The translations under genes and the position numbers were made by a program. The notes below the pieces were generated by a model. The model saw nothing but the letters and a program-made list of their open reading frames with translations, ran no database searches and had not been told where the DNA came from. Positions 39,715 to 41,668 of a DNA stretch of 64,000 nucleotides are shown here, in pieces (position 1 is the stretch's first letter; each line of letters begins with the position of its first letter). Source of the stretch: an uncultured Actinomycetota bacterium (lineage in GTDB: Bacteria > Actinomycetota > Actinomycetes > CAVWCF01). The DNA lies in contig CAVWCF010000001.1 of NCBI GenBank assembly GCA_963753435.1, positions 1,088,001 through 1,152,000 of the forward strand. Direction: 5' to 3'.

Positions 39715-40739
39715 CTAGAGAGTGAGGCCGATCAGCGTCGGCTCCGGAACCAGTTCAACGCCGAAGCGCGCCAGCACCCCGTCGCGGATCTCGCGGGCCA
39801 ACGCGATGACGTCTGCAGCCGTTGCGGTGCCGGAGTAGTTGGTGATGGCCAGCGTGTGCTTGCTGGACAGCCGTGCCGCCCCGCCGCCGTAGCCGGGCGC
39901 AAAGCCGGCCTGTTCGATGAGCCAAGCCGCTGACGTCTTAATGCGGCCATCGCCGGCCGGGTACCGGGGGGCGGCCGCCGGCAAGGACTCCGCGCGCGCG
40001 GAGTCCAGCACGGGTTGGTGAAGAACGAGCCGACGCTTCGCGTGTCCGGATCGTTGGCGTCCAGGACCATCCCCTTCTTGCGCCGCAACGCCAAGACTGC
40101 GCCGCGCACTTCCGCTGCCGGTGCGCGGGCACCGACCTCGACTCCCAAGGTGCGCGCCAACTCCGCGTAGCGGATCGGCAGACCCAACCGTTCGGTGATC
40201 AGTTGCAGCGTGACGTCCAGGACGACGAATCGATTCGGTGCGGCTTTCAGCGAACTCGTGCGGTAGCCGAGGCCGAGGTCGCCGACCGCCAGCGTGCGCA
40301 CCCGACCTTCGTGCCGGTCAAAGGCCCGGATCCGCGCCAGCGTGTCACCGACTTCCTGCCCGTAGGCGCCGACGTTCTGAATGGGCGTGGCCCCGGTCAA
40401 CCCGGGGATGCCCGAAAGCGCCTCGATGCCGGCCAGCCCGTCGTGGATCGCCCGCTGCACCGCCTCGTCCCACGGTTCGCCCGCGGCAATGGTGACCAGA
40501 ACGCCACCGCAGGAATCGGAGTCCCGATGCATCCCGCGGTGGCCGACGCGCACGACCACACCGTCGAAACCGTCGGCGGAAACGACGACGTTCGACCCGC
40601 CGCCCAACACCAGCAGGGGCTCCCCCTGATCGTCAGCCGCGCGGATGGCGTCGATGAGTTCGGTCTCCGAGTCGGCGGTGACCCACCGCCGGGCGGGGCC
40701 ACCGACCCCCAACGTGGTGACGTCCGCAAACGTCGTCAT
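39715..40739 (-). CDS. murB: UDP-N-acetylenolpyruvoylglucosamine reductase, split by an apparent 1-nt deletion near 40012
   Basis: [28 protein letters not shown] in one frame; [24 protein letters not shown] in the -1 frame. Confidence 0.93.
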
Positions 40740-41668
40740 GGCCGGGGCGCCAAAAGCCCGTCGCGACCACGGAACCGCTTGAGCAGTCGGTCATAGGTGC
40801 GCTTGGACTCGACTTCCCGAAACTCCGGATCGCTGTCGTGGTACCCGTGGTGCCGTCCCTGGCGCACGGGCAACTCATCGGTGGCCACCGGCTGCACCAG
40901 GCGTCCACCGGCCTCCCGGAGCAGCAGCGACCACTCCATGTCCGCGTTGCGATAGAAGCGCGCCTTACGGCTGGGCGGCGTCCCGGCGGCGGCGTCCCGG
41001 CGCACGGCCAACAGGTAACCGAGCAGCGCGTCGACTTCACCCGCGTCGGCATCGACGAACGTGCGCCAGTCGTCTTCCAGGTTCACGTTGACGCCGCGCC
41101 ATCCGGCCGCCACCACATCGCCGGTCAGGGCCGCGGCGAGGGGCGTGATCGCGTCACCGGTGAGGACCGACGACAAGTCCAGGACCACCTGCGCCGTAGC
41201 GGTGTCGGCACGAAGCAGGGCGGTTACGGCCGGGCCCCAGCCGACCGGCGCGTTGACATGGAACACCGAGACGCGGTCGTTGGCGGCGGCCAACTCCTCC
41301 AGCGCCACTCCGGCGTCGTCCACATTGCCGACATCAAGGGCGATCACGCGCAACTGGGCCGGTCCGTGCTGCAGCAGGCTCTCGACGCAAGTGCGCACGT
41401 CGTCAGGCCAGCCGTCCACGACCAGCAGCGCCGAAACGGCATGGGTGTCCGGCTCCTGGCTGCGATCGGGCAGGTCGCTCAGCCGGTCCAGTACCGCAAA
41501 CGGCGGCGCCTCGGCTAGCTCAAAGCCGTCCGGGGTGTCGGTGAGCAGCCAGCCCGCGTCGGCGATCCGCCGGCGTAACTCATCGGCGGTGGCGAAGTCC
41601 CTGGCCTGACGTGCCGCAGCCCGCTGCTCGGCCCAGGCCAGGACTTCGTCGGGGGGCTGCGCCGACAT
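40736..41668 (-). CDS. fusion of CysRS C-terminal-like helical domain and GT2-like glycosyltransferase domain
   Basis: N-terminus [35 protein letters not shown]; then [48 protein letters not shown]. Confidence 0.72.
   Translation of the reverse strand: [310 protein letters not shown]

Follow-up and report, generated by a model that had tools for sequence, protein, structure and literature searches.

A stand-alone protein with a CysRS-type anticodon-binding domain and a GT-A glycosyltransferase-like domain that co-occurs with a second cysteinyl-tRNA synthetase in Actinomycetota

Results and Discussion

A Soluble Two-Domain Protein Is Encoded Between hadB-Like and murB Genes

The stretch of DNA analyzed here (the window) comprises 64,000 nucleotides from the genome of an uncultured Actinomycetota bacterium (GenBank assembly GCA_963753435.1, contig CAVWCF010000001.1, positions 1,088,001 to 1,152,000). 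It contains a minus-strand gene for a protein in which a domain of the type found at the C-terminus of cysteinyl-tRNA synthetase (CysRS; Pfam family CysS_C, PF23493) is followed by a glycosyltransferase (GT) domain with a GT-A fold of GT2 type, and the gene and its product are called CysS_C-GT below. The order of the genes on that strand is tRNA-Tyr, tRNA-Thr, tRNA-Met, rpmG, hadA-like, hadB-like, the CysS_C-GT gene and murB, and the tRNA-rpmG-hadAB-murB surroundings are thus as claimed in an original prediction made from the letters of the window. The ATG of the gene (41668) lies 2 nt past the TAG of the hadB-like gene (41673-41671), and its TGA (40738-40736) shares an ATGA with the ATG of murB (40739-40737). 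Both junctions had been described in that prediction, which left the minus strand unstated, and every motif that it quoted, RHHGYH included, was found in the translation. The gene and the parts of its product are as follows.

40736..41668, minus strand: whole gene, stop codon included, for a 310-aa soluble CysS_C + GT-A protein (P0002)
41510..41653, minus strand: residues 6-53, CysRS-type C-terminal anticodon-binding domain (helix 7-21, helix 25-37, beta-hairpin 40-53)
41444..41509, minus strand: residues 54-75, structured linker (predicted local distance difference test, pLDDT, 91-95 in blocks 41-80)
40739..41443, minus strand: residues 76-310, GT-A (GT2-like) domain, from Pfam PF00535 and Foldseek
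41171..41179, minus strand: D164-L165-S166, where GT-A enzymes have their DxD motif, with Ser for the second Asp
40940..40942, minus strand: D243 in FYRNADME, candidate catalytic base, kept in 53/55 diverged members and 36/36 aligned homologues
40772..40828, minus strand: residues 281-299, C-terminal helix in which basic positions are conserved, behind the RHHGYHD motif (residues 272-278)

A longer open reading frame (ORF) starting at the ATG at 41722 was rejected: it overlaps the hadB-like gene, and the homologues begin within a few residues of MSAQPP. The whole protein was modelled by AlphaFold2 with a pLDDT of 95.4 and a predicted TM-score (pTM) of 0.90, the helices at 7-21 and 25-37 and the hairpin at 40-53 being followed by an alpha/beta domain. 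Its overall isoelectric point (pI) is 4.74, with 5.1 for the GT domain and 9.5 for the segment 260-310. No transmembrane or hydrophobic segment was detected in the protein, and a membrane-bound synthase-type GT2 enzyme was ruled out on this ground. Additionally, a near-identical metagenome contig of 1529 nt covers the CysS_C-GT gene free of gaps.

The N-Terminal Domain Retains the Anticodon Pocket of CysRS

The N-terminus had been proposed to be the C-terminal domain with which CysRS binds the anticodon, and this proposal was borne out by both profile and structure comparisons. When the window protein was searched alone, Pfam CysS_C matched residues 15-43 with an E-value of 0.002 and 18.6 bits, below the cut-off of 23, and 29 of 36 family members were matched at E ≤ 0.01 (best 3.9e-10). 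The domain assignment is settled at the level of the family, and CysS_C is therefore counted as present despite the sub-cut-off score of the single sequence. A profile built from 32 N-terminal domains, other classes included, was then compared with the PDB sequences, and at E ≤ 0.001 it retrieved CysRS chains exclusively, in five sequences: 3tqo (3.5e-11), E. coli 1li5/1u0b (6.3e-10), 3sp1 (9.9e-8), 6ujd (1.4e-6) and 8qhp (6.3e-4). The isolated domain was modelled with a pLDDT of 84.9, and its best Foldseek match was 1u0b_B, the E. coli CysRS-tRNA-Cys complex (root-mean-square deviation, rmsd, 1.2 Å over 46 columns; TMq 0.69; 39% identity; probability 1.00; E 0.021), followed by 3sp1_B, the Borrelia CysRS (E 0.13). 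No match of the isolated domain was found at E ≤ 1e-3, which is due to its shortness, and the ranking and the rmsd alone were used.

The likeness extends to the architecture of the domain and to its contact residues. As in the C-terminus of CysRS (PF23493; E. coli CysRS ~403-461, 1U0B), two helices and a beta-hairpin follow each other in identical fold order. According to the available part of one article, R427, W432 and D436 of E. coli CysRS touch the anticodon base G34, and R423 does so through water (PMC12684709); in the available part of another, R427, W432, D436 and R439 are the four residues mutated to alter the anticodon specificity (PMC13449415). In the alignment, R16, R20, F25, D29 and R32 of the window protein are the equivalents of R423, R427, W432, D436 and R439, respectively. 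Conservation was counted in 55 representatives of the module, fused forms included, which share 27-61% identity. R16 was kept in 53 of them, R20 in 54, an aromatic residue (F/W/Y) at position 25 in 52, D29 in 54 and R32 in 52, and the adjacent D24 was kept in merely 31. The near-invariance of the contact residues in these representatives indicates that the G34-reading pocket of CysRS is under selection in the CysS_C-GT family.

Unlike in CysRS, the domain is N-terminal here and the protein has no synthetase catalytic domain. The window protein matched only positions 423-463 of the 466 of the cysS equivalog model TIGR00435, by which the class I CysRS catalytic domain (HIGH/KMSKS) is absent from it; this domain is confined to the CysRS genes that stand apart from it and to the fusions described below.

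The C-Terminal Domain Is a GT-A Domain With an Altered DxD Site

The remainder of the protein had been called GT-A-like, correctly so by two methods. The Pfam GT2 family PF00535 matched residues 89-202 of the window protein with an E-value of 9.4e-6 and 26.1 bits, above the cut-off of 23.3, and it also matched 33 of 36 family members at E ≤ 0.01. A Foldseek search of the whole model against the PDB retrieved GT-A enzymes of the GT2 family with E-values from 9.4e-10 to ~6e-8 and a probability of 1.00; among them were WrtF (9omn, 9.4e-10), K4CP (2z86, 2.4e-9) and SpsA (1qg8, 2.9e-8), and also GalNAc-T2, GlfT2, TarP (6h4m) and AvpGT (9jn3). These solved enzymes share just 11-17% sequence identity with the window protein.

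The domain is like the inverting GT2 GT-A enzymes in its fold, in its PF00535 match and in having Asp at the positions of D112 and D164 and, putatively, at that of D243. D112, on an xDxGS-like strand, D164, G171-D172 and D243 are all conserved, and D243, a candidate for the catalytic base, would coincide with the ED/xD motif by which inverting GT2 enzymes are marked. The counts among the 55 representatives were 47 for G171, 45 for D172, 51 for R224 and 47 for R240. The DxD metal/nucleotide-sugar motif was not found in its usual form: its site reads D164-L-S166, a replacement that the original prediction had already noticed. In a hidden Markov model alignment to 3bcv, D164 and S166 fall on both Asp of the D-S-D of that enzyme. 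D164 is kept in 41 of the 55 representatives, with Glu in 6 more, and position 166 is Ser in 40, Gly in 7 and His in 6. We infer that the domain resembles an active enzyme whose metal site has been altered.

The window protein is unlike the inverting GT2 enzymes not only in having D-x-S for DxD, but also in its extra RHxGYHD motif, its basic C-terminal helix and its fused domain of RNA-binding type. In the helix, R284 was kept in 44 representatives, K/R289 in 55, R/K290 in 51, R294 in 45, R/K298 in 49 and W/F299 in 54; we know of no counterpart of this helix in ordinary GT2 enzymes. The linker between the two domains is conserved as well (V/L66 in 41, P67 in 34, P73 in 39 and S/T79 in 52 of the 55), and a motif resembling it was also found in CysRS-GT fusions of Chloroflexota.

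The Module Is Widespread and Is Fused to CysRS in Other Lineages

The joining of the two domains was expected to recur in other genomes if it was real, and it does so far beyond chance: 1408 matching proteins were found at E ≤ 1e-3 among 8000 candidates scored, 747 family matches in a representative library at 50% identity, and a relative encoded in 489 of 598 candidate stretches from species-representative genomes. The named relatives in these stretches are Actinomycetota (Frankiales, Mycobacteriales, Nanopelagicales/acI and Sporichthyaceae), and all three genomes of the window's own order carry the GT gene. In public databases the family is labelled as hypothetical protein, GT2 family glycosyltransferase or cysteine--tRNA ligase.

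The last of these labels has its counterpart in longer proteins. In six complete proteins of 722-818 aa from the representative library, a GT2 domain comes after a CysRS catalytic domain, and another eight representatives show this architecture in pieces that are truncated at the N-terminus. Among the six, CysS_C was matched at E ≤ 0.001 in P0200 only. When the GT part of P0200 was used as query, 563 proteins (clusters) of 449-1432 aa were retrieved at E ≤ 1e-10, and among the best 120 of these 563 most have ~790-840 aa and carry PF01406 and PF00535. Where a name is given, the fusions go by cysteine--tRNA ligase and are assigned to Roseiflexaceae, Oscillochloris, Kouleothrix, Ktedonobacteraceae or Chloroflexota, and one cluster comes from Candidatus Dormibacteria. 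With 422 and 404 bits, the fused synthetases exceed the TIGR00435 cut-off of 340. The last ~300 residues of these long proteins align with the window protein, and the window gene is a stand-alone form of their C-terminal module. In a tree of the 55 modules, all 14 fusion rows fell inside one clade of 23 rows with a support of 99/98; the tree, which has a midpoint root only, gives no order of fusion and fission.

The Chloroflexota fusions P0200, P0202, P0176 and P0192 end in a long His-rich tail (...HDHP.H...HTH.H.HWPDH.HEH.HYH), which may be a metal-binding feature, and the window family has the shorter RHHGYHD.

A Second CysRS Co-Occurs With the CysS_C-GT Gene in Actinomycetota

The genome of the window (2.17 Mb in 6 contigs, 98% complete) encodes three proteins of the CysRS family, at C5:142904-144286 (L082), C1:1616914-1618296 (L083) and C1:275213-276412. 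They comprise a canonical CysRS (P0290) with HVGH and KMSKS, a second CysRS, here named CysRS2 (P0289), with H-V-G-N and KMAKS and a TIGR00435 score of 372 bits (cut-off 340), and, as a further gene, an MshC with 591 bits against its cut-off of 485. CysRS2 is the closer of the two synthetases to the fused ones, with 43% identity (2e-119) to a fused synthetase as compared with 37% (2e-81) for the canonical CysRS. The zinc ligands and the anticodon-contact residues were invariant in 21 of 21 CysRS2 orthologues. A replacement of MshC by CysRS2 and the GT protein was ruled out for the window's genome, which has its own MshC above the cut-off. The surroundings of the CysRS2 gene in this genome (chemotaxis-like, VanW-like, dap and citrate synthase genes) were uninformative.

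A neighborhood survey of homologs for co-occurring partners had been suggested in the original prediction. The co-occurrence of the GT gene with CysRS2 was tallied in two samples of genomes. In the class sample, the GT module had to reach E ≤ 1e-25 and CysRS2 E ≤ 1e-105, every CysRS2 match having E ≤ 1e-130 and at least 55% identity; for the phylum sample, the best match to a GT-like gene had to reach E ≤ 1e-25 and that to CysRS2 E ≤ 1e-100.

Class sample, 301 genomes: GT 66, CysRS2 70; both 63, GT only 3, CysRS2 only 7, neither 228
Phylum sample, 401 genomes: GT 73, CysRS2 80; both 69, GT only 4, CysRS2 only 11, neither 317

Unpublished genomes are included in these tallies (G430, G434, G082, G088 and G148, with both genes, and G343, with CysRS2 only), and without them the figures for both, GT only, CysRS2 only and neither were 61/3/7/228 in the class and 66/4/10/317 in the phylum. 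Five of the seven CysRS2-only genomes of the class sample and three of the four GT-only genomes of the phylum sample are less than 90% complete. Joint variation was also observed inside single families: f96 has 6 genomes with both genes, 1 with CysRS2 only and 7 with neither; f101 has 4 with both, 1 with the GT gene only and 7 with neither; and f81 has 1 with both and 14 with neither. Both CysRS types and an MshC-like gene were present in all five genomes checked, among them genomes of 1.4-1.5 Mb, and the CysRS2-GT system is retained in streamlined freshwater genomes of 1.3-1.5 Mb.

The GT-only genomes of the class sample are G421, G424 and G496. In G421 and G424 the synteny is ordinary and no hidden fusion was found. 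G496, which has the GT gene and no CysRS2 match, carries an ORF of 604 aa (L105, 4698-6512) whose degenerate CysS_C-GT module continues in frame as MurB. This copy has DPA for DLS, V in place of F25, T in place of R32 and an internal deletion, and its C-terminus with the helix is lost. Its decay, a single case, fits a dependence of the GT protein on CysRS2. A complex prediction for CysRS2 and the GT protein gave a score of 0.00 and no verdict, and it weighs neither way.

A Predicted tRNA-Cys-Docking Glycosyltransferase

Taken together, the fusions and the shared distribution make it very probable that the CysS_C-GT protein functions together with CysRS2 or with tRNA-Cys. Docking on tRNA-Cys is suggested because the architecture, the conserved G34 pocket and the Rosetta-stone and phyletic link to a CysRS paralog all point to it, and the N-terminal domain probably binds the anticodon of this tRNA. 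The tRNA binding put forward in the original prediction thus receives strong, though indirect, backing from the retained G34 contacts, the CysRS-GT fusions and the co-occurrence with CysRS2. The explanation that we place first, and which we hold only tentatively, is that of a tRNA-Cys-docking GT working with CysRS2, with a predicted transfer of sugar near the anticodon. The cytosolic two-domain protein would dock on the GCA anticodon of tRNA-Cys through its CysRS-type domain, and the GT-A domain would move a sugar from a nucleotide-sugar onto the tRNA near the anticodon. The first choice of acceptor would be a nucleotide of the anticodon loop, because in split and fused forms alike the GT domain comes straight after the anticodon-binding domain, to which it is tied by a conserved, structured linker. 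This proposal supposes that the enzyme is catalytically competent with D-x-S in place of DxD. Taken on its own, glycosylation specifically near the anticodon is doubtful.

Several observations weigh against this explanation. The anticodon loop of tRNA-Cys in the window's genome is ordinary (C32 U33 G34 C35 A36 A37 A38), and we know of no glycosylated nucleoside from a bacterial tRNA-Cys. The protein is acidic (pI 4.74; GT domain 5.1), which is not typical of large RNA-binding surfaces, and with Ser for the second Asp of DxD in 40 of the 55 representatives a metal-dependent sugar transfer may be impaired or altered. A dedicated second synthetase is not obviously needed by a pure tRNA-modification enzyme. 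A distant stand-alone GT-like homologue without CysS_C, with ~30% identity, was found in family f18 (8 genomes). The numbers of genomes with both genes (63 of 301 and 69 of 401) were tallied by hand from genome tables and are not phylogenetically independent. Moreover, in the known systems with a dedicated or fused synthetase, as they appear in the available parts of the sources, it is with the tRNA's aminoacyl end that the transferase works (LysX, PMC2713425; ErdS, PMC13219428).

This last point leads to the first alternative, a non-ribosomal use of Cys-tRNA-Cys, which we regard as rather unlikely. CysRS2 would charge a dedicated pool of tRNA-Cys, and the module would grip the anticodon and act at the cysteinyl end, either by S- or N-glycosylation of the tRNA-bound cysteine or by passing the cysteinyl group to a sugar or nucleotide-sugar in the GT-A pocket, which would yield a cysteine-sugar conjugate. 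GT2-family S-glycosyltransferases modify cysteine thiols, CysRS2 retains its catalytic motifs and zinc ligands, the lipid and wall genes hadAB-like and murB are neighbors here, and the fusions and the co-occurrence with CysRS2 are consistent with this alternative too. A dedicated or fused synthetase paralog is, besides, the mark of known tRNA-dependent transferase systems, going by the available portions of the reports on LysX (PMC2713425) and ErdS (PMC13219428). Against it stands the structured, conserved linker by which the GT domain is tied to the anticodon-binding domain. The anticodon end of a tRNA lies ~70 Å from the CCA end, and the aminoacyl end could be reached only by an extended arrangement or by action in trans. 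To our knowledge, no GT-A enzyme uses aminoacyl-tRNA, and the genome already owns MshC for the ligation of cysteine to an aminosugar.

A regulatory, non-catalytic GT-A domain is a less likely alternative, and it ranks, like that of an ordinary envelope GT discussed below, beneath the two readings above. The D-x-S pocket would sense a nucleotide or nucleotide-sugar, and the protein would sequester and release tRNA-Cys or modulate CysRS2, so that the use of cysteine in translation would be coupled to the status of envelope precursors or thiols. The lack of the second DxD Asp in most members, the acidity of the protein, the position of the gene in housekeeping operons here and the gene for a cyclic nucleotide (cNMP)-binding protein that shares its gene string in 4 of 5 annotated loci of other classes would all agree with such a role. 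The strong conservation of D243 (53/55), D164, D172, R224 and R240 across phyla, by contrast, goes beyond what a binding pocket usually needs, and the gene is retained in streamlined genomes of 1.4 Mb, which makes a pseudo-enzyme unlikely.

Returning to the docking of the protein on tRNA-Cys, a wider formulation is possible, to which we give somewhat less than an even chance: a widespread and so far undescribed tRNA-dependent glyco-system of Terrabacteria, in which a dedicated CysRS2 and a GT-A protein with its own anticodon reader would put a sugar on tRNA-Cys or on its cysteine. The two make up one protein in Chloroflexota and Dormibacteria and are encoded apart in Actinomycetota, the abundant freshwater acI lineage among them.

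Relation to Known Systems

In the available part of a 2022 review, the CysRS paralogs given are MshC and the CysRS* of Desulfobacterales (PMC9437257, Table 1), and an earlier survey of synthetase-like proteins has, in the portion available, MshC as the sole CysRS paralog (PMC2922099). CysRS2 is thus new as a third CysRS paralog besides MshC and CysRS*, and it has a specific partner; the near-invariant G34 contacts, the CysRS-GT2 fusions and the co-occurrence with CysRS2 are also new. The full-text literature, with subscription journals lying outside it, yielded no paper on a CysRS-glycosyltransferase fusion, on a CysRS2 partnership or on PF23493, in agreement with the view of the original prediction that no enzyme with this architecture has been characterized.

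The closest parallels in principle are LysX, a LysRS-MprF fusion of mycobacteria (PMC2713425), and ErdS, an AspRS-DUF2156 fusion of fungi in which the tRNA serves as a swinging arm (PMC13219428), both as described in the parts of these articles that were available. The present system is like them in that a transferase has an additional synthetase paralog devoted or fused to it, by which in LysX and ErdS a tRNA is put to non-ribosomal use. In LysX and ErdS the transferases are of MprF/DUF2156 type, act at the CCA end and give aminoacyl-lipid products, whereas here a GT-A domain stands beside an anticodon-binding domain; a transferase domain of MprF/DUF2156 type was looked for in the module, in which Pfam gave GT2-type families only. 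MshC links cysteine to sugar chemistry in Actinomycetota as a CysRS paralog, as far as the available parts of two sources go (PMC2922099, PMC9437257). It is independent of tRNA and lacks CysS_C, and the window's genome has it in addition to CysRS2 and the GT gene. A precedent for GT-A enzymes that act on an anticodon base is QTGAL (B3GNTL1), reportedly the animal galactosyl-queuosine GT, which has a GT-A fold and is specific for one tRNA. This eukaryotic enzyme has queuosine of tRNA-Tyr as its target and carries no domain derived from a synthetase.

The system is not rare, with the GT gene in 66 of 301 genomes of the class sample and 73 of 401 of the phylum sample, and with 563 clusters of fused proteins that are labelled cysteine--tRNA ligase. 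Should tRNA-Cys or Cys-tRNA-Cys be modified by the GT domain, it would represent a new class of bacterial RNA glycosylation or of tRNA-dependent metabolite synthesis, and the retention of two CysRS enzymes would be explained. Bacteria would then have a first glycosylated tRNA or aminoacyl-tRNA, and the enzyme would be the first GT to choose its substrate by reading an anticodon. The finding would be categorically new if the substrate is RNA or an aminoacyl-tRNA; otherwise, the theme of a synthetase paralog with a transferase is already known.

Gene Neighborhood and Additional Observations

The genes next to CysS_C-GT in the window are listed here.

42550..42714, minus strand: rpmG, first in the gene string, for ribosomal protein L33 of the CxxC...CxxC form (54 aa)
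42060..42497, minus strand: hadA-like dehydratase subunit
41671..42063, minus strand: hadB-like MaoC-type dehydratase subunit, directly upstream with a gap of 2 nt
39715..40739, minus strand: murB, directly downstream with the ATGA overlap

A total of 80 related loci were fetched for the neighborhood survey. In 66 of them the GT gene has hadA/hadB-like genes upstream on its own strand, and 15 of these 66 have an insert of 1.6-2.7 kb from the hadB-like gene to the GT gene. In 42 of the 80, murB comes next after the GT gene, with genes for an aspartate aminotransferase, secE and nusG farther on. Fourteen loci belong to other classes (33-40% identity), and the hadAB...secE-nusG frame is retained in four of these. 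Among the other ten, five were annotated (L090, L093, L095, L100 and L101): the GT gene is convergent with ftsH in all five, and a cNMP-binding protein of 139-149 aa is encoded in the same gene string in four (L090, L095, L100 and L101), directly upstream in L090 and L095. The neighborhood is therefore of housekeeping type and variable, and it says little about function.

An ordinary envelope GT with a lipid, teichoic-acid or wall-linker acceptor, whose CysRS-derived domain would be a leftover kept for folding or protein contacts and whose link to CysRS2 would be historical, might be suggested by the translational coupling of the gene to the hadB-like gene and murB here, by the hadAB-like genes upstream in 66 of 80 loci and by nearest structures that are polysaccharide and teichoic-acid GT2 enzymes, but it is very improbable: there is no membrane segment, murB is next in just 42 of 80 loci and the neighborhood differs in other classes, the RNA-contact residues are near-invariant in 55 diverged members while the neighboring surface residue D24 drifts, the gene tracks CysRS2 within families, and the sole degenerate copy seen sits in a CysRS2-less genome. 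The repurposing of the domain for protein contacts in envelope synthesis, offered as one option in the original prediction, thus finds little support in murB at 42 of 80 loci and in the ftsH and cNMP-binding neighbors of other classes.

In this assembly, murB is broken by a frameshift of 1 nt at ~40010, where the frame is lost after ...SFFTNP. The true C-terminus carries on in another frame to 39715, one base apparently missing from a run of C, and intact murB in relatives encodes 347-351 aa. A near-identical metagenome contig (run X1) has one extra letter behind 40010, which makes a fault of the assembly or a difference between strains the probable cause of the break. A promoter and terminator scan of 39500-43300 returned no sites and gave nothing firm on an operon. 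The assembled contigs of an RNA-library run (X14) are short and match 39700-39820, 40634-40801 and 42246-42750 with 0-9 differences; they may derive from a relative, and transcription of the CysS_C-GT gene is not shown by them.

Some variation was also seen in the genes that accompany the module. In L014 (2386-4874 and 5842-8423), ORFs of the insert resemble an acyl-CoA synthetase and an alcohol dehydrogenase, and likenesses to a flavin monooxygenase and to an alpha/beta hydrolase were also noticed among the inserted and following ORFs, all as judged by eye from the translations. Genes for a luciferase-like monooxygenase and an alpha/beta hydrolase intervene in the gene string of L100 and L101, and in L093 a phosphodiester glycosidase-like gene adjoins the GT gene instead. 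The f18 homologues without CysS_C (L084, 6007-6825, and L085-L089) lie in unrelated gene contexts and retain D-T-S...GD and WYRNADLD; CysRS2 is nevertheless present in 9 of the 10 genomes of f18.

Finally, other arrangements of the two domains were observed. In P0210 (593 aa), an N-terminal region of 285 aa without a Pfam match precedes CysS_C and GT. P0129, P0130 and P0138, within a set of 416-547 aa, have an N-terminal CysS_C and a GT part that starts only from ~190-220, the stretch between them being of low complexity in P0129. The architecture of P0131 is similar, with its GT part starting from about residue 319.

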